A stretch of 54,773 bases of DNA from a virus (lineage: Duplodnaviria > Caudoviricetes): the IMG/VR virus record IMGVR_UViG_3300042453_001089, positions 1 through 54,773 of that record; one strand, given 5' to 3'. Every line of letters starts with the position of its first letter. Position 1 is the stretch's first letter. This document shows, piece after piece, positions 1-54,773 of the stretch. Under the pieces are notes generated by a model. The model did not search any database, was not told where the DNA came from, and saw only the letters and a program-made list of their open reading frames with translations. The position numbers and the translations under genes are program-made.

Positions 1-823
1 GTGGCAACAGAGTCTTCATCCTTTTTTGCTCCTCGTAGGCACCTTTCACACCGCACTGATCAGGGCACTCTTCGCAAGTGCCGATGTATGTGGATTGGTT
101 TTCGATGCTGACCCAGGCGCCGCCGCCCAGGTTGCGATGTCGATCAACCAAGATGTCGCCGGCCACGACCCGCGCGTCAGACGCTGGGATTCGCAGCGGG
201 TTGTCGATCACCAACTCGCCGGCCGTCTCAAATAGGCTTGCCTGTATCGCAGCCATGCGGCGGCCTTCTTCGGTGTCGCCAAACTTGCAGGACACGATGC
301 GAAGCAGCGACCGCATCCCAAAATCAAGGGACCGCCGCCACTCGCGAAGACGCAAGCGAAGTTCCGCCGGCGTGTCCATCGCTGAAACGGACGTGTTGAG
401 AACCGTGTTCGCGGATGCCATCCGACGCAGGTGATCGTCGTTCGATGCGATCCAATGCTTGGTGACGACGACCGGCGTTTTGAGTTTGCCCAGCCACTCG
501 CAAACCTCTGTCGTCAGATCCCAATCGTGGCAGGGATCGCCCATGTTTCCGATGCGAAACCACGTTGCCGGGTGGGCCACCAGCTGCCGCTCAATCACGC
601 GCCGTTCGCTGTCTTCAACCCGGCGGCTCACGCTGGTGGGGAAGTCGAAGCCGTACAGTTCCGCAGTCGAATTGGCGTAGCAGTGTCCGTAGCATCCGCC
701 CTTCGGCCTGGCCTTCATGCCAAGCGTGCAGCCCTTTACGGTGTCCACGTCGAGCACGCCCTTTCGGTTGCTGGACACTGTCAGCTTTGGCTTGTACTTC
801 TCAACAAACAGTCGCCGTACCAT
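1..823 (-). CDS. 5' part (radical-SAM-like domain) of the three-domain modification enzyme, allele A; runs off the window edge and continues at 51430 on circularisation
   Basis: Colinear with 51431..52253; ATG at 823 with an AAAGGA SD. Confidence 0.85.
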   Translation of the reverse strand, partial: MVRRLFVEKYKPKLTVSSNRKGVLDVDTVKGCTLGMKARPKGGCYGHCYANSTAELYGFDFPTSVSRRVEDSERRVIERQLVAHPATWFRIGNMGDPCHDWDLTTEVCEWLGKLKTPVVVTKHWIASNDDHLRRMASANTVLNTSVSAMDTPAELRLRLREWRRSLDFGMRSLLRIVSCKFGDTEEGRRMAAIQASLFETAGELVIDNPLRIPASDARVVAGDILVDRHRNLGGGAWVSIENQSTYIGTCEECPDQCGVKGAYEEQKRMKTLLP

Positions 824-844
824 CACGCATCCTTTCGTGTGTAT

Positions 845-996
845 TTGCCCGGTTACGCCGGGCGGGCGGTCGAGTCTCTGCGATCAGGAGGAACCGGTTT
901 GCGCGTCTCTCGACTGCCGGCGTTGAACCCCACTGGGCCGGCTATAGGGGCGAATGCTGGTGATGAGCCAGCTACGGCAATCGCGTGCCGGTGGTG
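845..996 (-). ncRNA. Structured RNA leader (hairpins plus probable pseudoknot), allele A
   Basis: Three compensatory base-pair swaps relative to 52273..52422. Confidence 0.6.
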
Positions 997-998
997 AT

Positions 999-1226
999 CT
1001 AGCGGGGTATCCGTTCGTTTTGGTCGAGTTCAAAAATCCGCTGGTTCTCCGCTCGTATGGCCCGTTCGTCGCGCCGCGTGTTGTGCCACGGCCCAACGTC
1101 CACGATCCATGGCGACGGCAGTTCGTCATCAAGCACTTTGCCAAGGTCCGTTTCCACCGTGAGCGGTTCGCTGATCCGTTGCCGGTACTGCTCGTCCGTC
1201 TCGAAGTCGCGTTTGAAATCAGCCAT
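999..1226 (-). CDS. Hypothetical protein (75 aa)
   Basis: GGAGG SD; near-identical protein at 52425..52652; coupled to recT. Confidence 0.8.
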   Translation of the reverse strand: MADFKRDFETDEQYRQRISEPLTVETDLGKVLDDELPSPWIVDVGPWHNTRRDERAIRAENQRIFELDQNERIPR

Positions 1227-2127
1227 GTGTCGCCACCTCCTCTGAGCCGATCAGGATCTCAGCCTTGCCGTGCAGCAGCTTGACCAGCTCGTCACGGTCG
1301 GCGTCGGTAAACACGCCTTCGGTGTGCCGCGTGCTGATGAGATCCCGCAGCGTGTCGCAGTCCTCGAGCGTCTTGGCTCGGCTCACGGCCAACCTGGCCT
1401 TGGCAACCGGGTCCGTGATCTCAGGCGGCTGACGCTTCGTCTTCAGCGTGACGGTGCTGGGCTGGTCCGTGACGATGTCGGGCGTGTGCGGCTCGAACGA
1501 CTCGACGTGGTGGACTTCCACGCCGGACGCGACCACCTGCGATTTGACGCCACGTGGACGAACGACCACGGGTTCGCGGGCCGGCTCAGGCGTCGGGTAG
1601 TCCTGTGCTTCCTCTGCCGTCACGAGCCCTTTCAACACGTCAGGGAAGGCGTCACGAAGAGCGAAGCCACGGGCACGCAGCTGGAGCATCCGTTTCGGAT
1701 ATTGCGTCCACGGGCCAGACTTGCCCCACAGCCCGGCCTTCTTGGCGTCGGCCACGCTGAACTGAACCGTGGTTGGCTTCGGGTAGCCACGCCGCTTCGC
1801 CTGACACTGGGCAACCATGGCATCGCCGTCGCCGGTCACTTCCTCCCAAACGAACTCGCACACCAGACTGCTCTGCACCAAGGCGAGGGCCGCATCGCCC
1901 CAAATGCTCGGGCGACCGTTGATGACAGCGATGCACTGCAGGCTTTGCATCGGGCCGAGTCCCAACTCGGCACCGTGCTGGCCAGCCAGCAAACACGCCT
2001 CCGGCTTGCCCTTGAAGTCTTTGGGCGCGAAGTCGGTCTTCGCCACCATCTGCCAAAAACGCCAGGCATCATCGAACGTCTGCAGGGCCAGCCCGCCGGC
2101 CCGTTGTGTGGTCAATTCCGTGGTCAT
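1219..2127 (-). CDS. recT: RecT/Red-beta-like ssDNA annealing protein, allele A
   Basis: GAELGLGPMQSLQCIAVINGRPSIWGD, AKKAGLWGK..PW.QYPKRML..RARGFALRDAFPDVLKG motifs. Confidence 0.8.
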   Translation of the reverse strand: MTTELTTQRAGGLALQTFDDAWRFWQMVAKTDFAPKDFKGKPEACLLAGQHGAELGLGPMQSLQCIAVINGRPSIWGDAALALVQSSLVCEFVWEEVTGDGDAMVAQCQAKRRGYPKPTTVQFSVADAKKAGLWGKSGPWTQYPKRMLQLRARGFALRDAFPDVLKGLVTAEEAQDYPTPEPAREPVVVRPRGVKSQVVASGVEVHHVESFEPHTPDIVTDQPSTVTLKTKRQPPEITDPVAKARLAVSRAKTLEDCDTLRDLISTRHTEGVFTDADRDELVKLLHGKAEILIGSEEVATHG

Positions 2128-2266
2128 CGTCGCGTCCTTTCGTGTGAATCCCTTTTGAAATCCCGCTCGGCGTCATGCGTTGCGGGTGCTTGTTGCGTCC
2201 TTGCTGCCCCGGTTCCACCGGGCTCCTTCTCCGTTCCGGTTCCACCGGGCCGGAGTCCTTTCCCGT
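2128..2266 (-). ncRNA. GGA-rich element, candidate CsrA/RsmA-binding RNA, allele A
   Basis: 11 GGA in 139 nt on the minus strand vs 1 on plus; two CCGGT-GGA-ACCGG hairpins. Confidence 0.55.
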
Positions 2267-2488
2267 CTAGTGCGTGATGTCCTGCGGCGAAACCGACAGC
2301 CACGCGCCGTCGCACTCAATCGCCAGCCAGCCACGATCAACCGCCATGACGTGGCCGCTCCAACGCTTGCCGGCAGTGCAGCCTGAGACGAAGTCGCCCA
2401 CGGCGGGTTCGCCTCTCGACCGGCTGCGCGGAGTCTGGTCGTGTATGCCAGCGATCGCCGCGAGGTACTCGTTGCGCGCTGCGTCCAT
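2267..2488 (-). CDS. Hypothetical protein (73 aa, small beta-barrel-like C-terminus)
   Basis: AAAGGA SD; conserved at 54453..54674. Confidence 0.8.
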   Translation of the reverse strand: MDAARNEYLAAIAGIHDQTPRSRSRGEPAVGDFVSGCTAGKRWSGHVMAVDRGWLAIECDGAWLSVSPQDITH

Positions 2489-2538
2489 GCTGTGTTCCTT
2501 TGTTCAGATGCCCAAGCAGGGCAGGGAAGATAAAAATT

Positions 2539-2552
2539 GGGGGGGGGGGGGG
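2539..2552. repeat. G14 homopolymer (G13 in copy B at 54724..54736)
   Basis: Direct count. Confidence 0.9.
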
Positions 2553-2654
2553 TGCAATTACCGTGCCGTTTGGCACTTGTTTTTCAGTGTTTTTTGACGT
2601 TGCGGAAAACTTTTGTAGCGGGCTCCTCACTCGTTTGTGGCGGGTCGTGCGGGT

Positions 2655-2682
2655 AATGTACGAACGTCCATCTAGCTTGCAA
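2655..2682 (-). promoter_or_regulatory. Putative sigma70 promoter TTGCAA-N16-TACATT overlapped by a TGTAC-N4-GTCCA palindrome
   Basis: AT-rich intergenic region upstream of the early operon. Confidence 0.5.
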
Positions 2683-2751
2683 GCGATGCTGTACAAAAAA
2701 CCATTCGACGGGCGTTTCGCTCTGTGTTTTGCGTGACGTTTTGCACAGTTG

Positions 2752-2791
2752 GTAGCGTCAGTTGGGCTATGGTGTAGCGTCAGTTGGGCTA
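2752..2791. promoter_or_regulatory. Tandem operator-like direct repeat GTAGCGTCAGTTGGGCTA x2
   Basis: Exact 18-nt repeat at 2752 and 2774; related sites inside the promoters at ~3887 and ~4245. Confidence 0.65.
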
Positions 2792-2935
2792 ACGTGCAAG
2801 AGCGCTGGCGATCCCGCACAGCAGTTCCAGCAGATCGTGGACTGCGCGAGCCGCCTGGGAGTCCGTGCCAAGCTCTTGGCCAAGACGCACCAGCGTCAGA
2901 GCGGTAATCGCGGCGTTGTAGTGGCGTTTCATTTT
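2789..2935 (-). CDS. Small hypothetical protein
   Basis: Overlaps the stop of the upstream gene; start uncertain. Confidence 0.5.
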   Translation of the reverse strand, partial: KMKRHYNAAITALTLVRLGQELGTDSQAARAVHDLLELLCGIASALAR

Positions 2936-3168
2936 CCAACCCTTGCGACGTTTTCGGGAGCGTATTCGCCTTTGCTCCAAAGGCGATCTTCAATTTCCGA
3001 TAGCTGGCGGCAGATGTCCTTCATCTGCTCTGCGTGCCCCCAGGTGAATTGCCTTCGGCCGCTGGCAACGTCTTCGTAGTCGCCACGAATCTTAATGGTC
3101 ATCGACTCGAGCAGCCCGACCGCGTAGCTGCACTGGCGTCCGTAGTCGTTTGTGGCTTCAGTGTTCAT
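2929..3168 (-). CDS. Hypothetical protein (79 aa)
   Basis: GGGAG SD; in a small-gene operon. Confidence 0.65.
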   Translation of the reverse strand: MNTEATNDYGRQCSYAVGLLESMTIKIRGDYEDVASGRRQFTWGHAEQMKDICRQLSEIEDRLWSKGEYAPENVARVGK

Positions 3169-3194
3169 CGGAGGCTCCCTTTGGTGATGGTGTG

Positions 3195-3237
3195 AAAAAG
3201 TGCCACCCGTTTCGCAGCTGTCGGCAGGCCGGGTGGC
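3195..3237 (-). terminator. Intrinsic terminator
   Basis: GCCACCCG/CGGGTGGC stem followed by a T-tract on the minus strand. Confidence 0.55.
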
Positions 3238-3251
3238 CCCACCGTGTGCGG

Positions 3252-3512
3252 TCAGAGGTTCATTGCCATAGCCACGACATACTTTGCCTCAAGCCTGCTC
3301 ATGGCTTTTGTCGTGACTCGGTAGCAGTGCCAGCCGGCCCGAAGTCCGCCGGGGAAGTCGTTCGCCGTGAGCGTCTTCGTGTGCGTGATGCCCTGCCCTT
3401 TCAAGGCAAGCGGCGTCCGCAGGTAGTAGTGCTCGCCGTAGTGGCCGAGCGAAGCCTCGATCTGCGTGTCAGCGGGAGCCTTCTCGTTCATCTCTGGGTA
3501 GTAGCAGTGCAT
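3252..3512 (-). CDS. Hypothetical protein (86 aa)
   Basis: ORF flanked by hairpins; AAGGGA SD. Confidence 0.7.
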   Translation of the reverse strand: MHCYYPEMNEKAPADTQIEASLGHYGEHYYLRTPLALKGQGITHTKTLTANDFPGGLRAGWHCYRVTTKAMSRLEAKYVVAMAMNL

Positions 3513-37888: not shown

Positions 37889-38294
37889 AGAGTCCTCCAG
37901 AGTCGCCCGCTTCAAGTGCTCGCATCGTGTCGCTGTCGATTGCAACTCGGCCGAGGCTGAACCCGGTCTGCTTTGTCGCCAGCCTGTCGCGTCGCGTTTC
38001 GTCGCTCCAAGTCGCCTGAACCGTGGTCGCCCGCTGTGCCACGAGCGGCGCCAGAGCGAGGCTGTTTTCGCTCGCTGCCAACTCGGCCGGAGGCGGGTCG
38101 AGAATCCGGTCGTCGCGAGAGGGCTTGTGCCGCAGCTTGCGATCGTTGCGCGGCGGCAGCCCCCACACCTCCCGCAGGCGAATCAGCTGGTGAACCGTGA
38201 CGGTCCAGTGCTGGCAGATCGCCCCCATCGGCAGGTAGGCGTGCCATTGTCGCTCAAGCGTGCGGCGGTCAATCGTCGCAGTGTTGCCGGCCAT
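37878..38294 (-). CDS. HTH protein (GcrA-like N-terminus), paralog of 43373..43684
   Basis: Shared W..VT..L..L..LPPR..RDD..SL.L.P.V..R pattern. Confidence 0.6.
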   Translation of the reverse strand: MAGNTATIDRRTLERQWHAYLPMGAICQHWTVTVHQLIRLREVWGLPPRNDRKLRHKPSRDDRILDPPPAELAASENSLALAPLVAQRATTVQATWSDETRRDRLATKQTGFSLGRVAIDSDTMRALEAGDSGGLYAD

Positions 38295-38946
38295 GTGCCA
38301 CCGCCTCCAGCATTGCGAACTTTCGCTCGACGCCCACTGTGAAGTTCGCGTGCCACGCCATGCACGACTCTGGCACCTCGATCGGCTCGCCGTCCCACGG
38401 TGCCGGCACTGTCGGAGCGTTGACCGTGGCCCAGTTGCAGACCACGTTCGGGTCGAGAATGTGCGGCTGCACCGGCAGGAACCCGCGTCGCTGTTCGGCT
38501 TGGCTCCGCAGCGAATGAATTACGTCTTGGTCAGGGATGTTCCAGGCGTTCGCCAGGTGCCAGACGACGTTCCAAAACTCGCGAACCTCTGGCGTCGAGC
38601 GGAACAGCATGACGCCGCAGCACCACTGAATCGCATCGTCGCTGAACGCAACGTCCTGCGTGCCCAGCGAGTCGCCGATCAGCGAGGCCCAGCGGTGCAT
38701 ACCGGGGAGCAGCACGACATCGGCGTCAACGTAGAGTGTCGGCATCCCGTCCATCGGCAGCGACATCAGCGCCCGCAGCTTGTCCAACATGCAGGCGTTC
38801 CAACCGGGCTGCTTGAATGACCCGCTCGGGCACGTCTGCTCACACCGCAGAATGCGAGTCTCCGAAAACGCCGATGCCCCCGGCAGGACGAACCGCCGGA
38901 ACATATCGGCATGGGACGGCGTGTAGTAGCTGGCGAGTCTCAGCAT
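38269..38946 (-). CDS. Nucleotide-diphospho-sugar transferase-like glycosyltransferase
   Basis: LYVDADV, CCGVMLFR, DQ, HAN. Confidence 0.82.
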   Translation of the reverse strand: MLRLASYYTPSHADMFRRFVLPGASAFSETRILRCEQTCPSGSFKQPGWNACMLDKLRALMSLPMDGMPTLYVDADVVLLPGMHRWASLIGDSLGTQDVAFSDDAIQWCCGVMLFRSTPEVREFWNVVWHLANAWNIPDQDVIHSLRSQAEQRRGFLPVQPHILDPNVVCNWATVNAPTVPAPWDGEPIEVPESCMAWHANFTVGVERKFAMLEAVAHGRQHCDD

Positions 38947-39692
38947 GGGTGGTGCGACCTCAATGCTGTTGTCACCGTGGCGTCAACCTCCTGCCACGCT
39001 GCGATATCTGGGCCGACCGTCGTCTCGATCCAGTTTGGGTTGGCGTGGTGCGCCGAGTGCCAGATCGGAGAAGGCACGTGCGTGCCAAGTTCGCCGCCGA
39101 TGTTCTGGATGCGAGCGACCAGCGGGCGCACTTCGCAGCGGTCCCGCCGGGTAGCTTTGTCGATCACCGTATCCCACGAAATCTGCCGGTCATCGTGCGG
39201 CCACGCTTCGCAGATGCTTTCCCAGCGATCGCGCCACGTGGCCCAGCCCCACGGCGTGAACCACGCCTCGCGGACCACGGCTTCCCGGTAATGCAACTCT
39301 GATGGCGGCGTCCGCTGGTAGCCGCAGACGGAAAACACCGTGGCGTCATCCATGTAGGTATCGAGCCCCCACTGAGCGAATCGCAGAAAGTCGCGAGCGG
39401 GAACGGTGTCATCCTCCAGTGCGATGACGCGGTCGGCTTCAGCAAACCCCGCCTGCAGTGCGAGGAACGTGTTGACGTTGCACCCAACCTTTTGGTCATG
39501 CCGCATCACCGTGGCCTTGATGCCCGGCCGGCGGCCGAATGCGACGGCCAGGTCAACGACTTCTTCGCTCACCGGCTCACACATGAGGATGACGGGCAGC
39601 TGCTCGACGCCGTCGCAGGCGGCCAGCGCGTCGAGCACACGCCGGGTGTAGAGCGGACGATGGCACAGAGTCATCACGATTGCCGTGGGCAT
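38940..39692 (-). CDS. GT-A glycosyltransferase
   Basis: IALEDD, PWGWATWRDRW, WD, RIQNIG. Confidence 0.85.
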   Translation of the reverse strand: MPTAIVMTLCHRPLYTRRVLDALAACDGVEQLPVILMCEPVSEEVVDLAVAFGRRPGIKATVMRHDQKVGCNVNTFLALQAGFAEADRVIALEDDTVPARDFLRFAQWGLDTYMDDATVFSVCGYQRTPPSELHYREAVVREAWFTPWGWATWRDRWESICEAWPHDDRQISWDTVIDKATRRDRCEVRPLVARIQNIGGELGTHVPSPIWHSAHHANPNWIETTVGPDIAAWQEVDATVTTALRSHHPC

Positions 39693-40327
39693 TGGCCGTC
39701 CCCCCAGTGGTCGCTCCATATCGGCTCATCTACCGTGCCGTCCCCTCGCAGGCTGGCGTGAATCGCTTGGCTGCGGCTGACGCGGACGCCAGCCATGGCC
39801 CAGCCGAGAAACGATTCAGCGTGGAAGATCCCGCCCGCGTCGATGTATTCATCCAGCCGGTCGAGGCGGTTGAAGTATTTCCGCATGATGGCCGGAGATC
39901 CCCACGCGAAGCGGTCGTTGAGCCCCCAGAAATTGCTGTGAGTCGGAACGTGCAGAAACTCGTCTGGCTCTGGCGGCTCAGGCGGCCGGTAGAACAGGAG
40001 GTCAGGCCGGCACCTGACGATCACGTCGGCCTCGAGGCCCGACATCTCGAACGCCTTCCACGCCCGCTGGTTGCCCCACAACTGCCGCAGGTTGCGTTGT
40101 ACTCCGTTGCACCCGCGACCCACCTGCAGCGTGTACTGGTGCCGCTCCGGCAACTCTGGCTGCGGCTCAATCAGCGTGACCGAGGGGCAAAACAGGAACG
40201 CCTTTTCAGCGTTCTCGTCCAGCGGTGCGTGTACCACAAATGATGCATCGGGATAGATCGCTCTGATGCCTGGAGCGCAATGCTCCGCGGTTCGCATCTG
40301 CCCGGCGATGATCACGACGACTTTCAT
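39674..40327 (-). CDS. Glycan-biosynthesis-associated protein (probable glycosyltransferase)
   Basis: IAGQMRT, DVIVRCRPDL, LNDRFAWG, HAESFL. Confidence 0.7.
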   Translation of the reverse strand: MKVVVIIAGQMRTAEHCAPGIRAIYPDASFVVHAPLDENAEKAFLFCPSVTLIEPQPELPERHQYTLQVGRGCNGVQRNLRQLWGNQRAWKAFEMSGLEADVIVRCRPDLLFYRPPEPPEPDEFLHVPTHSNFWGLNDRFAWGSPAIMRKYFNRLDRLDEYIDAGGIFHAESFLGWAMAGVRVSRSQAIHASLRGDGTVDEPIWSDHWGDGQCPRQS

Positions 40328-40911
40328 TTGCGGACGAAGAGCGCGTCGCCCCAACCCTTTGCGATGCCGTCAACGAAATCCATGCCGATGAACTGCCACT
40401 CACGAGACAGGTGAGCATGAATCGCGTGGAACAACGCACCACCTTGATAGAGGTCGATGATCGCCACCTCGCAGTAGATGATCTTCATGTGCCGCAGCGT
40501 CTGCTCTGCGCCTTTGAGCACTTGGAGCTCGTAGCCCTGCGCGTCGATGACGAGCATGTCGAACCCGGTGAGCGCGAATGAATCCAGCGTCCGCACCTCA
40601 ACGTCGATGTCACCGGAAAACGGAAACTCTGGATACTGCTCAAGATGCCCGCTCGGCTCTAGCAGTGAGCAGCACTGAAGGCTCTTGCTGAGGTGCAGTC
40701 GCGCGGTGCCAGCTGCCGAACCGATGGCGAACTGACGGGCGTCGAGTCCCTTGGCCTGCATCTCCCTGCACTTGGCTGGCAACGGCTCAAACCACACGCT
40801 CTTCGCGTTCCACTGCCGATACCACTGCTCCTCATTGCCGTCGAACCCTCCGACGTGAATCACGCCCGTTGGCATACCGACCGATGGAAAGGCGTAGGTG
40901 ACGAGGTTCAT
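40324..40911 (-). CDS. FkbM-family methyltransferase
   Basis: IHVGG, WFEPLP, IDAQGYELQVLKGA, WGDALF. Confidence 0.9.
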   Translation of the reverse strand: MNLVTYAFPSVGMPTGVIHVGGFDGNEEQWYRQWNAKSVWFEPLPAKCREMQAKGLDARQFAIGSAAGTARLHLSKSLQCCSLLEPSGHLEQYPEFPFSGDIDVEVRTLDSFALTGFDMLVIDAQGYELQVLKGAEQTLRHMKIIYCEVAIIDLYQGGALFHAIHAHLSREWQFIGMDFVDGIAKGWGDALFVRK

Positions 40912-41312
40912 GAGATCCGCACGGTAGTCCGTGCCTCCGGGCCGTAGCTTTTTTCGACGCAGACTTTTCCGAGTTGCGAATCGTCAACCCACGCGACACC
41001 GTTCAGTGCGTCTTCGATGCCCTTCAAACAGTTGGAGCAGTCGGCACGCGGCAGCACGGGTGCGTCGTCTCGCAACCCGCTCTTGCGGAAGTGCGACTTC
41101 GGGCGAGCGAACACCAGATCCACCACGAGTGTGAGCGGCGACGCATCCGTTGGCGTTGCACCAGCCGCTCGAGCAGCCGCGGCGATCGACGCCCGGTATC
41201 CGTGAATGGCGTGGCTTGCCGGAACGTAGGCGTGCCCGTGGCCGCCGCGCGTCGTGATGCGTGGACGTGGCTGCGGCACTGGATCGCCGGGCACTGTGAA
41301 CGTGATCGCCAT
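40908..41312 (-). CDS. rusA: RusA-like Holliday junction resolvase
   Basis: PVPQPRPR, RPKSH, D..N..K.IEDALNGVAWVDDSQ. Confidence 0.9.
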   Translation of the reverse strand: MAITFTVPGDPVPQPRPRITTRGGHGHAYVPASHAIHGYRASIAAAARAAGATPTDASPLTLVVDLVFARPKSHFRKSGLRDDAPVLPRADCSNCLKGIEDALNGVAWVDDSQLGKVCVEKSYGPEARTTVRIS

Positions 41313-41791: not shown

Positions 41792-42571
41792 TCAAGGCTC
41801 GCAGCCGGCAACCATGCAGGGCTCGCCAGGATGGCCGACGACCTCGCGAATCCAGCCAAGGAACAGGCTCACCCGCGTGTGGCACGACTCCTCACCAGCG
41901 GCGTAGCGTGGTCGCTCCGTGCCACGGCGGCTGACGCAGCTGTGGATTCCCACGAGCCGAGTGGTGCCATCGGCGCCGGCGGCCCACAGACCGCCACCAG
42001 AATCGCCCGGAGCGATACAGAAGGGCAGAGGCGTGCCGGTACGGCGTATGTCGCACACCAGTAGCGTTCGCTCCGTAGCGGTCAAAATCTGCGTCCCTGC
42101 ACGAAGCCCGGCGTCGTCGCCGGAAATGCCGGTGGAAAGCGTGCCGGTCATGCCGTAGCCGGCGGCAGCGGCAACCGTGCCGAGCCGCTCCGTCCCGTCT
42201 GACAGCGGCGGGAACTTCTCGAGTGGGAACTCCTGCGACGTGTGGACTAGGGCTATGTCGTTCCACCCGTACTCGCCGGCGTAGGCAGGGTGAGGGATGA
42301 CCCTGCTCACGGCGTGATCGCCCGCGAAGGTTGTCACCGCACACTGGGCCATACCCTTGGTGACGTGAGCCGCGGTCACCGCCCAGTGCGGTGCGATCAG
42401 GACGCACGTGCCGTGAGCCCGCTTGCCGTCCGATGTCGTGCCGCGAATCTGGCACGTGTAGTTCGCGAACGCTTGACCGTACTCGCGATAGTGGGCGTCG
42501 GGGATAGTGTCCTCGATGGTGCCCGCTAAGGCCACCGAGGACCACGCGAGAAAAAAGAGGACGCCTCGCAT
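41792..42571 (-). CDS. Secreted trypsin-like serine protease
   Basis: Signal peptide; TAAHV, NDIALV, GDSGG. Confidence 0.92.
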   Translation of the reverse strand: MRGVLFFLAWSSVALAGTIEDTIPDAHYREYGQAFANYTCQIRGTTSDGKRAHGTCVLIAPHWAVTAAHVTKGMAQCAVTTFAGDHAVSRVIPHPAYAGEYGWNDIALVHTSQEFPLEKFPPLSDGTERLGTVAAAAGYGMTGTLSTGISGDDAGLRAGTQILTATERTLLVCDIRRTGTPLPFCIAPGDSGGGLWAAGADGTTRLVGIHSCVSRRGTERPRYAAGEESCHTRVSLFLGWIREVVGHPGEPCMVAGCEP

Positions 42572-43686: not shown

Positions 43687-44796
43687 TCAGTCCACCGCCA
43701 GCGGCATTATCACACCCGTGAAATCGTCGCACCGGAGAACAACCGCCGACTGTGCGTCAGTCGCCTGCACGCTCACCGTGGGTTCGCCGTCAGCGGGCAG
43801 TCCCGTCAGCCACTCACGCACGAACACAGGGTCAAGCTTGACGCTGCAGGCGTGGCCGAACTCCACGACATCGCACGTGACCGACGATTCGCCAGCCTCG
43901 GCAGACTGACCGTGCAGGTGCAGCCCGTCCTTCGTGATCGTGTACAGCACTCCCTTGCTGTTCTCGCTGGTGACGATCGCCGCCGCTCGAGTCGCAGACA
44001 GCAGATCCGCCGCAGTGATCGTGGACGGCTCCGCGCCCTCAGCCGGGATCACGTCACGCCACTTCGGGAAACGCCCATCAGTCAGGCGAGCCGTCACCGT
44101 CGTCGTGCCGATCGTCGCCACCAGTGCATCCTTGTTGGCCTCCAGCTGCACGCTGCCGTCAGTCTCGCTGCCGGCCAAACGGCACAGGATCGCCATCACA
44201 CGGCTCGGCACGAGCGTCTGCGAGTCATCAACCGCCAGGTCGTGCTCACACTCGCAGGCAGCCAACCTGCGGCCGTCAGTTGCCACAAGCGTCACGATCT
44301 CGCCTTTCACGTCCACGAGCACCGCACCCAGAGCGTAGCGGCTGGACTCCATGTCGGCGGCGTAGGCCACGCCACGAACCGCACGGGCGAACTGGTCCGC
44401 CGGCAGGCGGGTGACCGGCTTTTCGCTTTCCACCTCCCACGACGGATACTCAGCGGCGTCCTCGACAGGCAGCGTCCACGTGCCGTGTCCTGCGGAGACA
44501 ACGCAGGACGTGCCGTCCGGCGCGAGCGTCACCGTGTCGCCACCAGCGGTGTTCAAAATCGCCAGCAGCCTCTGATGCGGCAACAGGATCGTGGCCCCGT
44601 GGTAGTCGATCGCCACGTCGATCCGCACCTCAAGGTCCGTACCCGTCAGCAGGCCGTCGCCCAGGCGAACGTTCTGCAGGATGGGCTTCGGTCCGCGAGC
44701 GATCGCCGGTGCCACAGCCTGCAGGGCCGCCCGCAACTCACTTGCCACCAGCGCGATGCCAGTAGTCTTTGCCTTTCGTTCCTTCGTTGCCGTCAT
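43687..44796 (-). CDS. dnaN: DNA polymerase III beta sliding clamp homolog
   Basis: PILQNV, TDLE, SRYALGAV, VATDGRRLA, GRFPKW..VIP, VIMP. Confidence 0.92.
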   Translation of the reverse strand: MTATKERKAKTTGIALVASELRAALQAVAPAIARGPKPILQNVRLGDGLLTGTDLEVRIDVAIDYHGATILLPHQRLLAILNTAGGDTVTLAPDGTSCVVSAGHGTWTLPVEDAAEYPSWEVESEKPVTRLPADQFARAVRGVAYAADMESSRYALGAVLVDVKGEIVTLVATDGRRLAACECEHDLAVDDSQTLVPSRVMAILCRLAGSETDGSVQLEANKDALVATIGTTTVTARLTDGRFPKWRDVIPAEGAEPSTITAADLLSATRAAAIVTSENSKGVLYTITKDGLHLHGQSAEAGESSVTCDVVEFGHACSVKLDPVFVREWLTGLPADGEPTVSVQATDAQSAVVLRCDDFTGVIMPLAVD

Positions 44797-45329: not shown

Positions 45330-46177
45330 GGCTCGTCCTTGAGTTTGATGGCGTCTGCAAGTCCTGCGGCTTCCCGTGGTCGCCTGTACGGCGCCGGTCG
45401 GTATTCGTCCCGCCACGCCTTCGGTGGCGGCTTCTCGTCTGGACGCACGCCCGGCTGGCGGTTCGTGCCGCCCTTGTCTTGGCAACGGGACAGCCAACGC
45501 ACGAGGAACGAACGCCAGTTACGTCGGCCTGCCCGTGTCGGGTTCGCCCGGAGCCAGGCGGTGGCCTTGGCGAGCTCCTGGTCGATCACGGCACCGGGGT
45601 AGGCGGCGGCCCACTCCTGCCGGTCGGCGTCGGTGATGCCCTGCCACCCTGCGTCAGCAGTCCACGAGACGGCAGGTTTCGCCCGCGAGCGGGACGGCTT
45701 TGCCGGATCGCTCGTGGAAACCGGCGCAGCCGGTATGTCTTTCTTCTCTTCTTCTCTCTTCTCTTCTCCTGTCCTCTCCTCTAGTCCGGTTTTTTCTGGA
45801 CAAATTTCGGACGCACCGCCGGACAAACGCCGGACAGCCCTGTCCGCAGCTTTCCGGCGGGCGTCTTCCATGCGAGCCTTGGCAGCACGGGAAAACCGCT
45901 TTTCCCAGCCCTCAATAGTCGCGTGCGGCCCGTCAAAACGGAGCCAGCCCACGCGAGCCACAGCCAGCCAAAACGCCTCGTCACCACCGCAGGCCGTCGC
46001 AATCCGTGACGCTGTAGCGCGGATCGTGCCGTCTGCGGTGTTCATGGATGCCCACGACCACAACTGGATGAGACGCCAGCAGACCACCTCAACAGGCAGC
46101 CCGGTTTCGTCCACCAGCTCAAGCACCTCGGGCTTCGTGCCCAGGTTGCAGTCAAGGGGAATCCATTCACCGGCCAT
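45326..46177 (-). CDS. Phage replication initiator
   Basis: MAGEWI..PEV..LWSWA N-terminus; EEKREEEKK linker; C-terminal AWL.ANP..F..WL.R. Confidence 0.75.
   Translation of the reverse strand: MAGEWIPLDCNLGTKPEVLELVDETGLPVEVVCWRLIQLWSWASMNTADGTIRATASRIATACGGDEAFWLAVARVGWLRFDGPHATIEGWEKRFSRAAKARMEDARRKAADRAVRRLSGGASEICPEKTGLEERTGEEKREEEKKDIPAAPVSTSDPAKPSRSRAKPAVSWTADAGWQGITDADRQEWAAAYPGAVIDQELAKATAWLRANPTRAGRRNWRSFLVRWLSRCQDKGGTNRQPGVRPDEKPPPKAWRDEYRPAPYRRPREAAGLADAIKLKDEP
45738..45846. other. Putative replication origin within the initiator gene
   Basis: GGAC-core repeats at 45798, 45809, 45821, 45832 plus inverted copies, next to a polypyrimidine tract. Confidence 0.5.
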
Positions 46178-47079
46178 TAAGGCTGCCCGTCCTTTCCGAT
46201 CCAGCCCATGCCGACGTAGTCGCCGTCAACATCTTGCGGCGACGGTGAAATCAGCAGTTCTTTGTTCTTTGGTCGCTTCTTGTCAGTTACAGCGTTCGTG
46301 TATCGAATCTCCAATTCCCGGAATTCTGCCCACGAATAGAGTTCTCGAACCTCTTGGCAGTCATCGTAGGACAGACGCCAATCCGCCTTTGTCTCGCGGA
46401 GCAACGTCGCCAACTCGACGTGCTCTTCGTGGCTCATGTTGTGGGCATACAGCTGCCCGCCTTTCACGTAGTACGGCGGGTCGAGATACACGAGCGAAGA
46501 CGAAGTTGCGTCTGCTATCAAATCGCGGAAGTGCAGGTTTGTGATCCGTACTTCTTGAAATCGCCTGAGCGTTTCTTTTGCGTTGTAAATCGCCTGCTCA
46601 ATTGAAGCAGGCGTCCACCTGCACCCAACCGTGTACGCGCCATCCTGCCTCTTGCCACCAATCGGACCGCCAGCCATTGCGCCAAAGCCGCTCACGCTCA
46701 TTCGGTGCAGGGCAATCTTTCGGAAGGCGTCGCGCGCAATGCAGCCGGTTGACGTACCATCAGCCGACTTCAGTTCATAAAACGCTTCCTTGGTCGGCTG
46801 AAACTCTCGCACGTATTCGACAAGTTTTCGCGTCTCGTGCATGACCGCATGCCATACGGCATACATCGCGTAGTCGATGTCGTTGATCCAGACTGAGATT
46901 GACCGCCGCACGTGCTCGAGCAGTTGAAGGCCGGCGGCACCGGAGCCGAAAAAGGGCTCGACAAACCATGCGTTTTTCGGCGGCTCAAAAACGCTGCCGA
47001 TCATCCAGCCGGGCATGTGTTCGCGGATCATTGGTGTAATCTTCGCCTTTGATCCGGGGTAGCGAATAATTGACGGCAT
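46177..47079 (-). CDS. Dam/D12-class DNA adenine methyltransferase
   Basis: RYPGSK, EPFFGSG, INDI, YLDPPYY, LSYDD. Confidence 0.92.
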   Translation of the reverse strand: MPSIIRYPGSKAKITPMIREHMPGWMIGSVFEPPKNAWFVEPFFGSGAAGLQLLEHVRRSISVWINDIDYAMYAVWHAVMHETRKLVEYVREFQPTKEAFYELKSADGTSTGCIARDAFRKIALHRMSVSGFGAMAGGPIGGKRQDGAYTVGCRWTPASIEQAIYNAKETLRRFQEVRITNLHFRDLIADATSSSLVYLDPPYYVKGGQLYAHNMSHEEHVELATLLRETKADWRLSYDDCQEVRELYSWAEFRELEIRYTNAVTDKKRPKNKELLISPSPQDVDGDYVGMGWIGKDGQP

Positions 47080-47660
47080 CACAGCACCTCGTCGATTGGC
47101 CGAATCTTGAGCAGTTGACGAATAGGAAGCAGGCTCAAATTGCTTATCTCTTTGTTCATCCACTCACCTCGCGGCGAACAAACGGACTTGACTCGCAACA
47201 ACGCAGCACGGCTCACGTAGCCATCGACGCTCACGGTGGGCGTCAATCCGTTCCACGTCGCAAATACAAACCAATCGCACGCTTCAATCGGATCGCGAAC
47301 CAGACGAGTCTGAAACTTCTTGCGCGATGTCTTCACCTGCACGTGCCCTGACGGAAGAGGTAAATCTTTTCCGCCGTCTCCGCGATCACGCATTGCAAGG
47401 TCAACGCCAACGCGAGACAACTTGCACATAGCAATTTCGCCAACCTTCCCAATGACAATTCCAACGTGCGCCTGATCGGCGTCTATGCCGCCGTAAAGCC
47501 GCATTCCCGAAATCAGACCGCCCTTCCATCCTGGCTGTCCGGCGTATGCACGAAGTCGAGAACATCGCTGCGCGAACTCAAAGCACATCGCCACTTCCGA
47601 AGGCGTAATCTCAACGACTACTGGCAGCGGTGGTCTTTTTCCTTGACCTTCCACTTCCAT
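47079..47660 (-). CDS. PD-(D/E)XK-like nuclease
   Basis: GKVGEIA..DGGKD..VQVKT. Confidence 0.6.
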   Translation of the reverse strand: MEVEGQGKRPPLPVVVEITPSEVAMCFEFAQRCSRLRAYAGQPGWKGGLISGMRLYGGIDADQAHVGIVIGKVGEIAMCKLSRVGVDLAMRDRGDGGKDLPLPSGHVQVKTSRKKFQTRLVRDPIEACDWFVFATWNGLTPTVSVDGYVSRAALLRVKSVCSPRGEWMNKEISNLSLLPIRQLLKIRPIDEVL

Positions 47661-49947: not shown

Positions 49948-50064
49948 TCACGTCACGCCACCCAGCGAGTCCGCAGCTGCGGCGCTGGTGGCAGAGCCAC
50001 GCACGCTGGGGGCGGGTGTTGAGAACAGCGGGCCGGGCGGTGTGTCGGGCCAGTAGTCGGACAT
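49948..50064 (-). CDS. 38-aa ORF, probable N-terminal remnant of an interrupted wHTH gene (not in the ORF track)
   Basis: GGGAGG SD and TGATG overlap; MSDYWPDTPPGPLFSTPAPSVRGSATSAAAADSLGGVT. Confidence 0.55.
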   Translation of the reverse strand: MSDYWPDTPPGPLFSTPAPSVRGSATSAAAADSLGGVT

Positions 50065-52253
50065 CACAGCCTCCCTATTGGCGGGTACAGCAACTTGATC
50101 TTCTTGGGATCACCCTTGAAGAAAACGAGGATCTTCTGCTCCCGCTTCGGAAACTTCCGGTAGTTCAGCGTTACCTTCGCGTGAGCGAGTCGCGTGAACT
50201 CGCATTCGAGGTAGACGATTTTGTTGTAGATGTGCAGGCCACGGTCGCGGAAAAACAACTCGTGCTCCGCTTCACACCCGTAGTACCCGCCGTGCTTATC
50301 GCGGGAGTCGCCCGTCATCACGACGAAGAATCGGTTGTCGTCCAGCGCGTCGATCGCACGCTGATAACCGGCGAAGAGCATGTCACGAAACTCGCCATAC
50401 GTCGGCAGACTGTTCAATTCGCCGACCGGCGACTTGCCGTCGTAGTCGAGGTACTCCTCAACCTGATAGTAAGGCGGGCATGTAAAGCACAGGTCGAACT
50501 TGCCCTCCGGGGTGTACTGGCTGCTGTCAGACTGAACCCACGTTGCAGATGACAGCTGCGAGCAGATCGCATTGTTGGCGTCGCACTGGTTCTTTCTGAT
50601 CTCGCTGGCGACGTACTCCAGCCCGTAGGAAGCCGTGACAAAGCCGAACTGAACGCCGCCGCCGAACGGGTTGTAGACGCGACTGCCACCACTCGGCATG
50701 AAAAACCGCAGGATCGTCTCGCAGGCCACAGGGTCCAAAACCGATGCGTTGCCGTTGAACGACTTGCCGCGGACTTCCTTGACGGCGTCGCCCTCAATCA
50801 CCCTCTCGGTGAGAACGACATTGGACATCCCGTTGCTGCCCTGCCAGCAGCCGTCACGTGTGGCGTAGGTCGCGTTGGCAACGCCGGCAGCCTGACCGGC
50901 TTCGTTGATCTTCGCGTTCCACTCGCGCTTCATCTTGAGCCAATCCGACCTGGTGGTCGTCCAGGCGTTGGTCATGGTGGCGTGAGCCAGCCGCTTGAGC
51001 CTCGCCTGCGATTCGGTGCCATGCACCATGTAGCAGTAGCCGCTGAGTTCCAGGTACGTCCAGAATCCGCAGCCCTCGAAGACGCTCGGTCGTTCCAGCT
51101 TGTGCTTGGTGCTGCACGTCAGGAACATCGGGTAGCCAAACGTGTTGCGCTGGACGATGGCATCAACCATCATTTGGTACTGGAATTTGTTCTCCATGCC
51201 AGCGACCATCGCGGACTGAAGCAGGCAGAACTCACCGGCCTCGTGATTCACCTGAAATGTGAAGAAACCCGTGAACGCGCCGTCGATCAGCAAGACCATC
51301 GCAGAATGAATCTGCATGTTCTTTCTGGCGGCCCGGTAGGCGACCTTGTCTTCAATCGCAAGTTTCGCAATCGCGTCTTGATACTCCGAACCGAGTACCG
51401 TTTCGACATACACGCACTCCACCGTCTCGCGTGGCAACAGAGTCTTCATCCTTTTTTGCTCCTCGTAGGCACCTTTCACACCGCACTGATCAGGGCACTC
51501 TTCGCAAGTGCCGATGTATGTGGATTGGTTTTCGATGCTGACCCAGGCGCCGCCGCCTAAGTTGCGATGTCGATCGACCAAGATGTCGCCAGCCACGACC
51601 CGCTCGTCAGACGCTGGAATTCGCAGCGGGTTGTCGATGACCAACTCGCCGGCAGTCTCGAACAGGCTTGCCTGTATCGCTGCCATGCGGCGTCCTTCTT
51701 CCGTGTCGCCAAACTTGCAAGACACGATGCGAAGTAGCGACCGCATCCCGAAATCAAGGGACCGCCGCCACTCGCGAAGACGCACGCGAAGTTCCGCCGG
51801 CGTGTCCATCGCGGAAACGGACGTGTTGAGAACCGTGTTCGCGGATGCCATCCGACGCAGGTGATCGTCGGCCGATGCGATCCAATGCTTGGTGACGACG
51901 ACAGGCGTTTTGAGTGTGCCCAGCCACTCGCACACCTCTGTCGTGAGATCCCAATCGTGGCAGGGATCGCCCATGTTTCCGATGCGAAACCACGTTGCCG
52001 GGTGGGCCATCAGCTGCCGCTCAATCACGCGGCGTTCGCTGTCTTCAACCCGCCGACTCACGCTGGTGGGGAAGTCGAAGCCGTACAGTTCCGCAGTCGC
52101 ATTGGCGTAGCAGTGTCCGTAGCATCCGCCATTCGGCCTGGCCTTCATGCCAAGTGTGCAGCCCTTTACGGTGTCCACGTCTAGCACGCCCTTTCGGTTG
52201 CTGGACACTGTCAACTTTGGCTTGTACTTCTCAACAAACAGTCGCCGTACCAT
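50064..52253 (-). CDS. Three-domain protein: radical-SAM-like + GNAT-like + amino-DNA methyltransferase
   Basis: GC..GGCYGHCYA, FRIGNMGDP, CEECPDQC; GFFTF..FCLLQS..FEGCGF; SVLDP..E, NPFGGG, TCPPYY. Confidence 0.8.
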   Translation of the reverse strand: MVRRLFVEKYKPKLTVSSNRKGVLDVDTVKGCTLGMKARPNGGCYGHCYANATAELYGFDFPTSVSRRVEDSERRVIERQLMAHPATWFRIGNMGDPCHDWDLTTEVCEWLGTLKTPVVVTKHWIASADDHLRRMASANTVLNTSVSAMDTPAELRVRLREWRRSLDFGMRSLLRIVSCKFGDTEEGRRMAAIQASLFETAGELVIDNPLRIPASDERVVAGDILVDRHRNLGGGAWVSIENQSTYIGTCEECPDQCGVKGAYEEQKRMKTLLPRETVECVYVETVLGSEYQDAIAKLAIEDKVAYRAARKNMQIHSAMVLLIDGAFTGFFTFQVNHEAGEFCLLQSAMVAGMENKFQYQMMVDAIVQRNTFGYPMFLTCSTKHKLERPSVFEGCGFWTYLELSGYCYMVHGTESQARLKRLAHATMTNAWTTTRSDWLKMKREWNAKINEAGQAAGVANATYATRDGCWQGSNGMSNVVLTERVIEGDAVKEVRGKSFNGNASVLDPVACETILRFFMPSGGSRVYNPFGGGVQFGFVTASYGLEYVASEIRKNQCDANNAICSQLSSATWVQSDSSQYTPEGKFDLCFTCPPYYQVEEYLDYDGKSPVGELNSLPTYGEFRDMLFAGYQRAIDALDDNRFFVVMTGDSRDKHGGYYGCEAEHELFFRDRGLHIYNKIVYLECEFTRLAHAKVTLNYRKFPKREQKILVFFKGDPKKIKLLYPPIGRL

Positions 52254-52272
52254 CACGCATCCTTTCGTGTAT

Positions 52273-52422
52273 TTGCCCCGTGACGTGGGGCATCCGGTCG
52301 AGTCTCAGCGTCAGGAGGACCGGTTTGCGCGTCTCTCGACTGCCGGCGTTGGTCCGCACTGGGCCGGCGATACGGGCGAATGCTGCTGATGAGGCAGCTA
52401 CGGCAATCGCGTGCCGGTGGTG
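52273..52422 (-). ncRNA. Structured RNA leader, allele B
   Basis: Covaries with 845..996. Confidence 0.6.
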
Positions 52423-52424
52423 AT

Positions 52425-52652
52425 CTAGCGGGGTATCCGTTCGTTTTGGTCGAGTTCAAAAATCCGCTGGTTCTCGGCGCGGATCGCCCGTTCGTCTCGC
52501 CGCGTGTTGTGCCACGGCCCAACGTCCACGATCCAAGGCGACGGCAGTTCGTCATCAAGCACTTTGCCGATGTCCGTTTCCACCGTCAGCGGTTCGCTGA
52601 TCCGTTGCCGGTACTGCTCTTCCGTCTCGAAATCGCGTTTGAAATCAGCCAT
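52425..52652 (-). CDS. Hypothetical protein (75 aa), allele B
   Basis: Near-identical to 999..1226. Confidence 0.8.
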   Translation of the reverse strand: MADFKRDFETEEQYRQRISEPLTVETDIGKVLDDELPSPWIVDVGPWHNTRRDERAIRAENQRIFELDQNERIPR

Positions 52653-53538: not shown

Positions 53539-53678
53539 ATTTCCGCGTCCTTTCGAGTGAATCCCTTTTAAAAATCCCGCTCGGCGTCCTGCGTTGCGGG
53601 TCGTTCGTGCGTCCTTGCTGCCCCGGTTCCACCGGGCTCCTTCCGCCAACTAGCTCCGCTGGCCGGCGGTCCTTTGGC
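53539..53678 (-). ncRNA. GGA-rich element, allele B
   Basis: 11 GGA in 140 nt on the minus strand, 0 on plus. Confidence 0.55.
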
Positions 53679-54419
53679 TTACGCCGTATGTGTTCTGAAA
53701 AGCGGCAACTCTGGTTCTTCACGCTTGGCTGTGATCGGAAACGACACCGGCGCGAAATCCGCAGCCTTTGGATATGGCATCGCTCGCGGCGCTAGCCGGC
53801 GACGCGCCCACGGCGTAAGCGGGAACGCATAGCGAAACTGGCGAAATTCATGCTTAGTCGCACGGTCGCGGCCGGCGGCAAGCCTCGCTGCTTTCGGCCC
53901 GCTCCCCCAGCCGCGATTGTCTTTGGCAGCTCTGCCGAGCAGAGACTTGTGAAACCATTCGCCGTCAAGGAAATAAAACGCAGTGACGTGGCTTCCGAGG
54001 TAGATGAAGTTCGCCGCCTGATACACGGCACCAAGCTTTCCGCACCGCTGGTCGGCAAAGCTCTGTATCACCTGCACCATCGGACGATCAGACTTGATGT
54101 GCCGCATCGCCTGAGCAATCGCCCACGAAACCACGTTGCGTTCGTGTCCGTCGATAAAAGCCATCCGATTCAGTTCAACGAGCCCGCAGGGTTCCAGCCC
54201 CTCAATCACCTTCGCTGTAGCCCGCGGATTCATGGATGGCCCAAACTGCAAAACACCCCAAACAAACGAGAGAGAATCGACTAAGGCCAAGTGCGTATGG
54301 GATGCCCAGACGGCACTGCCGCTGTAGTGCCGCTCGGAAATCCAGCGGTCGGCAAAACGCTTCGTCACTGGTGACAAGGCGTAAAGCCGGGTGCCGATCT
54401 TGGTGTATTTGGTTCGCAT
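53679..54419 (-). CDS. mom: Mu Mom-like adenine modification enzyme (GNAT fold)
   Basis: HYS, GVLQFG..MNP, ELNRM, QSFADQRCG..G.VYQA.NF.Y.GSH..FY.LDGEWFH, H.F.QFRY, PYPK. Confidence 0.9.
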   Translation of the reverse strand: MRTKYTKIGTRLYALSPVTKRFADRWISERHYSGSAVWASHTHLALVDSLSFVWGVLQFGPSMNPRATAKVIEGLEPCGLVELNRMAFIDGHERNVVSWAIAQAMRHIKSDRPMVQVIQSFADQRCGKLGAVYQAANFIYLGSHVTAFYFLDGEWFHKSLLGRAAKDNRGWGSGPKAARLAAGRDRATKHEFRQFRYAFPLTPWARRRLAPRAMPYPKAADFAPVSFPITAKREEPELPLFRTHTA

Positions 54420-54452
54420 TGGTTCGCTCAGTCCGTGCGTTTGCAAACTTGC

Positions 54453-54674
54453 TCAGTGCGTGATGTCCTGCGGGTCCACCGGCTTCCATTCGCCGTCGCA
54501 TTCGATCGCCAGCCAACCCCTGTCGCAGGCCATGACGTGGCCGCTCCAACGCTTGCCGGCAGTGCAGCCTGAGATGAAATCGCCCACTGCGGGTTCGCCT
54601 CTCGACCGGCTGCGCGGCGTCTGGTCGTGGATGCCGGCGATCGCTGCGAGGTACTCGTTGTGCGCTGCGTCCAT
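54453..54674 (-). CDS. Hypothetical protein (73 aa), allele B
   Basis: Homolog of 2267..2488. Confidence 0.8.
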   Translation of the reverse strand: MDAAHNEYLAAIAGIHDQTPRSRSRGEPAVGDFISGCTAGKRWSGHVMACDRGWLAIECDGEWKPVDPQDITH

Positions 54675-54773
54675 GCTGTGTTCCTTTGTTCAGATCGTGA
54701 AGAAGGCCGGGAGGATAAAAATTGGGGGGGGGGGGGTGCAATTCCTTTGCCGTTTGGCACTTGTTTTTCAGTT

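Follow-up and report, generated by a model that had tools for sequence, protein, structure and literature searches.

Virus record and gene layout

The window analysed was the whole of one IMG/VR virus record (54,773 bases, 62% G+C). The genes of its early region lie on the minus strand. In the direction of transcription, copy A of this region consists of a 440-nt noncoding gap, ORF73 (2488..2267), a 139-nt stretch, a gene of the RecT family (2127..1219) and further genes. The two ends of the record match each other over three segments (1–1595 with 51431–53020, 93%; 2108–2229 with 53519–53643, 88%; 2269–2588 with 54455–54772, 88%). The ends are thus diverged copies of the same early region, and the two 'alleles' of the stretch are natural variants of one locus. 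A circular genome assembled across two strains most likely explains copies A and B. The genes that flank the stretch are as follows.

1219..2127, minus strand: RecT-family gene of copy A, the downstream cistron (Pfam and PHROG)
2267..2488, minus strand: ORF73 of copy A, the upstream cistron, encoding an N-terminal helix and an SH3-like barrel; co-conserved with the RNA
53679..54446, minus strand: Mom-family gene between ORF73 and the RNA, found within the window in copy B only (Pfam Mom, 2.6e-52)
54453..54674, minus strand: ORF73 of copy B

The product of the copy A recT gene was matched by Pfam RecT (1.5e-7) and by the PHROG RecT-like family (1.2e-49); the copy B product gave 0.0063 with Pfam RecT, under the cut-off. 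A mom gene is also present between ORF73 and the RNA in one relative (L080). Pfam and PHROG scans of the approximately 45 proteins of the window returned no RNA-binding families. No tRNA gene was found that could serve as an attachment-site marker.

Structure of the conserved RNA

The stretch upstream of recT contains a structured RNA core of 112 nt with three covarying hairpins, P1, P2 and P3. Its parts are given below for both copies.

2155..2266, minus strand: copy A, RNA core (model R1, 108 bits; covariation)
2255..2262, minus strand: copy A, site 1, single-stranded GAAAGGAC immediately after the ORF73 stop codon; Shine–Dalgarno-like (SD-like) without a start codon
2230..2254, minus strand: copy A, hairpin P1, UCCG..CCGGU-GGA-ACCGG..CGGA, with an apical GGA triloop
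2223..2229, minus strand: copy A, linker 1, GAAGGAG, a single-stranded and perfectly SD-like GGA
2208..2222, minus strand: copy A, hairpin P2, CCCGGU-GGA-ACCGGG, with a GGA triloop; the stem that covaries most strongly
2196..2203, minus strand: copy A, site 5, CAAGGACG in linker 2, which fits CANGGANG
2162..2186, minus strand: copy A, hairpin P3, CCCGC..GC-AUGAC-GC..GCGGG, with the apex AUGAC and not the usual AGGAC
2155..2161, minus strand: copy A, U-rich tail AUUUCAA, 3' of P3
2131..2142, minus strand: copy A, Shine–Dalgarno region of recT, CGAAAGGACGCG, the last GGA site
53569..53680, minus strand: copy B, RNA core (model R1, 121 bits)
53643..53669, minus strand: copy B, hairpin P1, CCGCCGGCCAGC-GGA-GCUAGUUGGCGG
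53622..53636, minus strand: copy B, hairpin P2, CCCGGU-GGA-ACCGGG
53576..53600, minus strand: copy B, hairpin P3, apex GC-AGGAC-GC, which includes CAGGACG
53544..53555, minus strand: copy B, Shine–Dalgarno region of recT

Covariation was assessed in a MAFFT alignment of 52 distinct sequences, in which RNAalifold alone gave P2 and P3 and P1 was added by hand. In this alignment 87.1% of the cells are paired, compared with 32–41% when the partners are slid; both sides change at 20 of the 24 pairs, and none of 500 shuffles matched the observed values. A model-fitted alignment of 78 hits (66 distinct), which leans towards the model, gave 91.9% paired cells and changes on both sides at 22 of the 24 pairs. 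G–U pairs are frequent in the model-fitted alignment (13 at one P1 pair, for example), which is compatible with the transcribed strand only. Single-sequence folding was no stabler than that of shuffled sequences (z = −0.32 and −0.44), and the evidence for the fold is therefore comparative.

The MFE apex of P1, a long hairpin, is a GGA triloop in 42 of the 66 distinct elements and AGGAC in 15. The linker between P1 and P2 reads GGAAGGAG. All six pairs of P2 covary, and GGA forms its MFE apex in 60 elements. After the second linker, which reads GCAGCA-N-GGACGCA, P3 comprises five pairs, an internal loop and an invariant GC/GC step, with a mean ΔG of −10.2 kcal/mol; 3–6 U follow in 61 elements (3–5 U in 58). 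The MFE apex of P3 is AGGAC in 49 of the 66. In 15 elements, copy A among them, it is AUGAC, ACGAC or similar, so GGA is dispensable there. Longer variants of the element repeat a small hairpin together with GUUUUCAC.

No Rfam family matched at its gathering score across the whole window, and no Csr/Rsm family matched at E ≤ 10 in the interval 1900–2900. The comparisons support well the view that the element is a widely conserved phage RNA motif that appears to be new with respect to Rfam; it may already be among the 8,495 unnamed models of PMC10690425. The entries of that catalogue resemble the present element as candidate structured RNAs from IMG/VR that are intergenic, covarying and phage-borne, whereas GGA and CsrA do not occur in its main text.

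GGA content and conserved sites

The initial annotation reported 11 GGA per stretch on the transcribed strand, and this count is exact: positions 2128..2266 hold 11 on the minus (transcribed) strand and one on the plus strand, and positions 53539..53678 hold 11 and none, respectively. Nowhere else in the 54,773-base window does a 140-nt frame contain as many as 11 GGA; averaged over the window, such a frame has 1.45 on the plus strand and 2.35 on the minus strand. When the same stretches were shuffled with their dinucleotides preserved, the probability of at least 11 GGA was 0.008 (copy A) and 0.0008 (copy B). Owing to the purine-rich composition, 5.7–6.5 GGA would be expected in any case, which makes the enrichment roughly two-fold. 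The hairpins that had been described are likewise present, CCGGU-GGA-ACCGG occurring twice in copy A (the apex of P1, and P2) and AGC-GGA-GCU forming the apex of P1 in copy B. The 5' part that had been noted to differ between the copies while remaining rich in GGA is hairpin P1, whose stem has changed and whose GGA loop has been kept.

A comparison of homologous intergenic regions had been proposed as a check, with loss of the GGAs as the adverse outcome; the homologues retain them. The 66 distinct elements carry on average 7.6 GGA per 112 nt, compared with 3.8 in shuffles. TCC is missing from 57 of the 66, and the U content of the RNA is just 8.8%. Six GGA positions are conserved; sites 1 to 6 are occupied in 53+8, 53+6, 60, 61, 61 and 51 of the 66 distinct elements, respectively. 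Three of the conserved GGAs are displayed at hairpin apices; the others are unpaired A-N-GGA sites ahead of P1 and in the two linkers. Site 5 takes the form CA-A/G/C-GGACG, in which the nucleotide between the fixed A and the fixed GGA is free. Copies of the motif AGGACGC, all oriented alike, are present at site 5, at the apex of P3, in one type of P1 apex and at the Shine–Dalgarno sequence. No pairing partner (a complementary UCC or GCGUCC) was found in the RNA, so the repeats of AGGACGC are better described as repeated recognition sites than as arms of an alternative pairing. A switch of the riboswitch type that relies on such pairing was rejected on the same ground. The Shine–Dalgarno sequence of the next gene, GAAAGGAC, lies 6–10 nt before the ATG in nearly all loci and 18–51 nt past the core.

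Some other candidate functions of the stretch were considered and set aside. A small peptide encoded in the gap is contradicted by 1-nt indels and by the different frames in which the core is read in the two copies and their relatives. A mimic of a CRISPR repeat was discarded, since fixed sequence is confined to the loops and the stems are free to covary.

Distribution and gene context

Related loci were collected from IMG/VR with the RecT protein as the query (596 related stretches, 80 kept) and from a search of one genome per species (65 loci). In the window itself, model R1 finds exactly two copies, one at each end. It matches all but five of the RecT-anchored viral loci (75 of 80); the misses comprise four loci with less than 500 nt upstream and one divergent variant (L077). 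The model also matches three MAG contigs (L081, L082 and L091), and nothing convincing was obtained with it in the other 62 genome loci. The exact core pattern occurs in at least 118 IMG/VR stretches with one match per contig, and the element is single-copy in each genome. All 24 of the listed runs that hold the locus are lake-water metagenomes, and none of them is an RNA data set. Four weak hits of the RNA model (25–27 bits) and one further hit (L119, 18 bits) look unrelated and lack an adjacent ORF73 gene. The closest isolated phages are distant, with less than 60% identity on the portal protein and RecT.

An independent view of the context was given by a search with a 22-member alignment of ORF73, which returned 182 relatives. 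In 79 of the 80 that were retained, the RNA comes just after the ORF73-family gene, and only 54 nt remain in the lone exception. In most loci the element starts between −3 and +2 nt from the upstream stop codon and ends 18–51 nt before the next start. The gene that follows varies. Among the 78 hits of the RecT-anchored set, a RecT-type start comes next in 68 and a gene of about 150 amino acids precedes recT in approximately eight. Among 78 pattern-anchored loci, the next gene encodes RecT in 56 (plus two artefacts of start-codon picking), the ∼150-amino-acid protein in about nine and an AAA_24 (Sak4-like) ATPase in about seven; four of these loci end with the contig. The element is tied to a fixed place between the ORF73 family and the recombination module, not to recT. 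Autoregulation by RecT in the manner of gp32 is unlikely because the downstream gene changes.

The ORF73 protein

In the ORF73 product, a conserved helix at the N terminus (NEYLAAVAGLHEQT-like) precedes an SH3-like barrel. The AlphaFold model has a mean pLDDT of 77, rising to about 90 over the barrel. The best fold matches in the PDB (Foldseek) are Tudor, Hfq and KOW domains with E values of 0.02 or worse, a generic match. Profile matches are weak (BirA SH3, E = 0.018; RimP SH3 in five of the 22 members, with a best E of 0.0073), and the Atlas leads are SH3, PSHCP and DUF3104 at 0.86–0.87. By residue count the protein is near-neutral in charge. Its linkage to the RNA may be plain synteny inside one clade.

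Host and CsrA searches

As the initial annotation stated, no csrA gene is recognizable in the window, whether by a six-frame search with Pfam CsrA or with a custom CsrA HMM (best E value 1.5). No csrA was found in five related phage records, three of them at least 90% complete, and no CsrA in the five genomes that hold related contigs. Among the candidate hosts CsrA is rare, being found in four of 151 genomes of the Burkholderiaceae-type family and four of 101 of the Limnocylindrus-type class; the four CsrA-positive Burkholderiaceae-type genomes have neither the RNA nor ORF73. Related RecT proteins were also found in 45 prophages of named hosts, CsrA-positive hosts included, and none of these has a GGA-dense leader.

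The host hints point to Beta- or other Proteobacteria. RecT relatives occur chiefly in Burkholderiales and other Proteobacteria, and relatives of the integrase, approximately 59% identical, carry the NCBI names Betaproteobacteria, Proteobacteria and Caulobacteraceae MAGs. The MAG assignments of the three element-bearing contigs conflict (Burkholderiaceae, Chitinophagales and Limnocylindrus). A search with the RNA model of 151 genomes from the family of G001 and 151 from the class of G002 returned just the two already-known MAGs. The terminase was at most 49% identical to sequences in 301 Burkholderiaceae-type genomes. The phage clamp is 27–30% identical to the cellular clamps of all candidates and so does not discriminate between hosts. 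An ORF73 profile gave four weak hits in 401 Actinomycetota genomes, all within larger frames, and none in ten further genomes. PMC7366521 reports CsrA in just two species of beta-proteobacteria. The host of the present phage is likely to lack CsrA.

Interpretation

We tentatively favour the reading that the intercistronic RNA of about 112 nt, carried on the early-left mRNA of a temperate lake-phage clade, is a cis-encoded multivalent platform for a predicted GGA-reading factor and controls the next cistron. A GGA-reading protein would occupy several sites together and bridge to the Shine–Dalgarno site. Bridging would set the translation of the recombination module (RecT, the ∼150-amino-acid gene X or the AAA_24 ATPase) relative to that of the upstream gene, and the bound RNA would also sequester the protein. 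We infer both the binding of a protein to the RNA and the effect of that binding. The arrangement resembles CsrA-repressed leaders of the glgC/pgaA type, in which upstream GGA sites are combined with one that overlaps the Shine–Dalgarno sequence at distances a dimer can bridge; it differs from them in that the phage element is kept as one unit in front of changing regulated genes, and in that a CsrA partner is not in evidence. Within the platform reading, the reader is probably a factor other than CsrA, and the co-conserved phage ORF73 protein is the first candidate; a host CsrA-family protein is the less probable reader, and only if the host has one. A parallel is offered by Aca1 and Aca2, small phage regulators that bind 5'-UTR hairpins and block translation (PMC13551039). 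There, as in the present locus, the gene for a small phage protein adjoins a conserved, covarying hairpin motif whose end is some 20 nt short of the next start. In contrast to that system, ORF73 is not a helix–turn–helix protein and is only a candidate binder, and the RNA lies downstream of the protein gene and not at the 5' end. The stems of P1 and P2 (6–12 bp) and their 3-nt loops count against the platform; in PMC7652899, high-affinity CsrA sites are mostly hairpins of at most four pairs with 6-nt loops.

The initial annotation proposed that the stretch is a CsrB/RsmZ-like RNA that titrates host CsrA in trans, or that it places recT under the control of host CsrA. The design does resemble that of the Csr/Rsm RNAs. 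As in RsmZ, RsmY and CsrB, several GGAs per ∼110 nt are placed in apical loops and linkers, the density and placement being similar to those of RsmZ and RsmY, and the last hairpin is followed by a U-run, with which P3 could terminate a discrete RNA. CANGGANG is present once in 62 of the 66 elements, and 58 have one or more CAGGA(U/C/A)G, compared with 0.03–0.10 expected; the two sites concerned, site 5 and the apex of P3, fit the CsrA consensus well. The RsmE consensus has the form A/UCANGGANGU/A. According to PMC7652899, the CsrB repeat is CAGGA(U/A/C)G, a SELEX consensus is available and one CsrA dimer bridges sites 10–63 nt apart; the main sites of copy B are spaced at 10–39 nt, within this range. 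PMC7366521 reports csrA in 30 of 2,517 phages, including some phages of Burkholderia that lack CsrA, from which it follows that the Csr pathway is used by phages. The family assignment and the titration of CsrA fare less well. The phage RNA has no homology to any Rfam Csr/Rsm family, and two of its three hairpins have long stems with 3-nt loops. It is intercistronic and lacks a separate promoter: the upstream stop codon and the next start lie so close to it that an sRNA promoter would not fit, and a scan of 1900–3300 gave no promoter-like sites. P3 with its U-run is at most terminator-like. It is not bound to recT, and CsrA is neither found in the phage nor common in the candidate hosts. We regard both forms of the proposal as improbable. 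A host-CsrA sponge is also the less likely form of the platform reading, unless the host carries csrA.

Control at the level of transcription is unlikely; the element would be either an antitermination site of the nutR/putR type or a leaky-terminator attenuator formed by P3 and its U-run, and would regulate whether transcripts of the first early gene continue into the recombination genes. In lambda and HK022 the promoter is followed by a small first gene, then by nutR or putR and then by a terminator. The position of the element, directly after the first small gene of the early operon past the 440-nt regulatory gap, resembles this layout, as do nascent-RNA hairpins with a U-rich hairpin end. 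The promoter-proximal place in the early operon fits such a site, with the promoter and terminator only inferred. The element also stays where it is whatever gene comes next, P3 precedes a U-run in an otherwise U-poor RNA, and the longer variants repeat hairpins. Against this, the terminator scan does not call P3, the loop region of which is too large, and the U-run is continuous with the U-rich/CACA stretch that usually precedes the ribosome-binding sites of this phage. An alternative antiterminator pairing is not available, as the RNA offers no UCC as a partner for GGA. Its loops consist of GGA triloops or AGGAC, and GGA triloops differ from the GNRA-like pentaloops of boxB type; no N-like arginine-rich protein was seen adjoining the element.

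A role as a ribosome decoy, standby site or mRNA stabilizer similar to STAB-SD appears rather less probable still. SD-like sites would bind the 30S subunit through the 16S tail without initiation and would either shield the mRNA or supply the next cistron with ribosomes. GAAAGGA is the ordinary ribosome-binding site of this phage (recT, dnaN and the 730-amino-acid gene). The 16S tail CCUCCUUUCU was read from a Comamonadaceae-type genome; predicted pairing with it is −10.1 kcal/mol (site 1) and −8.9 to −11.6 kcal/mol (AAGGAG), compared with −9.5 kcal/mol for real sites. The two single-stranded sites thus pair like real ribosome-binding sites, and for them this explanation fits as well as the platform does. 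No conserved start codon follows the SD-like sites, GUG being present in P2 in just 30 of the 66 elements. The strong SD-like sequence without a start codon is as in STAB-SD, but the location is not at a 5' end, as the element follows ORF73 or mom. Against this role, the only invariant letters of P1 and P2 are the GGA of tight triloops, which are unable to pair with the 16S tail; site 5 allows G, C or U before GGA, which weakens Shine–Dalgarno pairing and fits A-N-GGA; site 5 and the loops pair more weakly than −6 kcal/mol; and the conserved CGC after GGA mismatches the tail. The covarying hairpins are also left unexplained. It is very improbable that the RNA has no function of its own and that the stretch acts passively or at the level of DNA, as a recombination module boundary, as single-stranded DNA hairpins or as intercistronic punctuation or a processing site. 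Gene content does shift on both sides, with mom inserted upstream and RecT halves, the ∼150-amino-acid gene X or AAA_24 swapped downstream, and C-GGA-G and U-GGA-A are GNA-type triloops, a kind known to be stable in both DNA and RNA. However, compensatory changes preserve the pairs, the G–U pairs suit only the transcribed strand, the middle letter of the loop is always G and the six GGA positions are retained despite diverged stems.

Returning to the platform and its reader, the RNA and the ORF73-family protein could form an undescribed phage regulatory pair, in which a multi-GGA platform is read by a non-CsrA protein in hosts without Csr and either times the recombination module or ties up a host factor that reads GGA or Shine–Dalgarno sequences. 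We consider this specific proposal unlikely as it stands. Should a different reader have taken over the GGA-loop platform, phages would time their early genes in more ways than are now known; the other resolution of the CsrA puzzle is that these phages tap the Csr system of an unrecognized host. The motif marks a fixed regulatory joint before interchangeable recombination modules (RecT or AAA_24) and is a handy anchor for finding them.

Record ends and assembly

The two ends of the record (window 1-2588 and 51431-54772) are 88-93% identical and carry the same early region in duplicate, with mosaic differences between the two versions, copies A and B. No DNA similarity was found between copies A and B in the N-terminal half of the RecT gene (1596-2107 versus 53021-53518), and a Mom-family gene (53679-54446) is present in copy B only, being absent from copy A. 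The record probably represents a circular genome whose assembly spans two strain variants, in which case it would in reality be about 51 kb long.

Non-coding sequence of the early region

Repeats and homopolymers were recorded upstream of ORF73, the small SH3-like gene that precedes the RNA element, and a hairpin upstream of a 79-aa gene (2929-3168).

Window 2539-2552, plus strand: run of 14 G, copy A
Window 54724-54736, plus strand: run of 13 G, copy B
Window 2752-2791, minus strand: 18-nt direct repeat
Window 3202-3218, minus strand: hairpin

The homopolymer, which reads as poly-C on the transcribed strand, is flanked by TTGCAC and AATTTTTATC; approximately 60 nt separate it from the downstream ORF73, and relatives have it too. 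Possible explanations are a variable-length promoter spacer and a sequencing-prone tract. The direct repeat, two copies of TAGCCCAACTGACGCTAC separated by 4 nt, falls in the non-coding gap of 440 nt that precedes ORF73 and may represent an operator, iteron or arm-type site. The hairpin at 3202-3218 is followed by ACUUUUUCACAC, AAAGGGAG and the start codon; the order of hairpin, U-run, CACA and ribosome site is common to this region and the 3' end of the element.

Phage cargo genes

The cargo genes encode a 730-aa protein with a C-terminal third that matches DNA methyltransferase PHROGs, a D12 adenine methyltransferase, a sliding-clamp (DnaN) homologue, RusA, three sugar- or methyltransferases and a trypsin-like protease.

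Window 50064-52256, 46177-47163, 43687-44796, 40908-41312, 38269-40911 and 41792-42571: cargo-gene stretches

A clamp gene with 57% identity to that of the phage (G002:C45:2754-3953) was identified in G002, the Limnocylindrus-type MAG, on a different contig from the element-bearing L091; two or more contigs of the phage group are therefore present in this MAG.

Genes following the RNA in relatives

In about one tenth of the loci a gene of ~142-175 aa, for which no Pfam or PHROG matches were found, lies between the RNA and recT. In some relatives RecT is replaced as the next gene after the RNA by an AAA_24 (Sak4-like) ATPase.

L017:3513-3971, L019:3508-3972, L081:3502-3972 and further loci: gene of ~142-175 aa between the RNA and recT
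L161:9671-10552, L187:1265-2158 and L213:2738-3643: AAA_24 ATPase after the RNA

The presence of the ATPase in the place of RecT indicates that alternative recombination modules are exchanged at the same joint.
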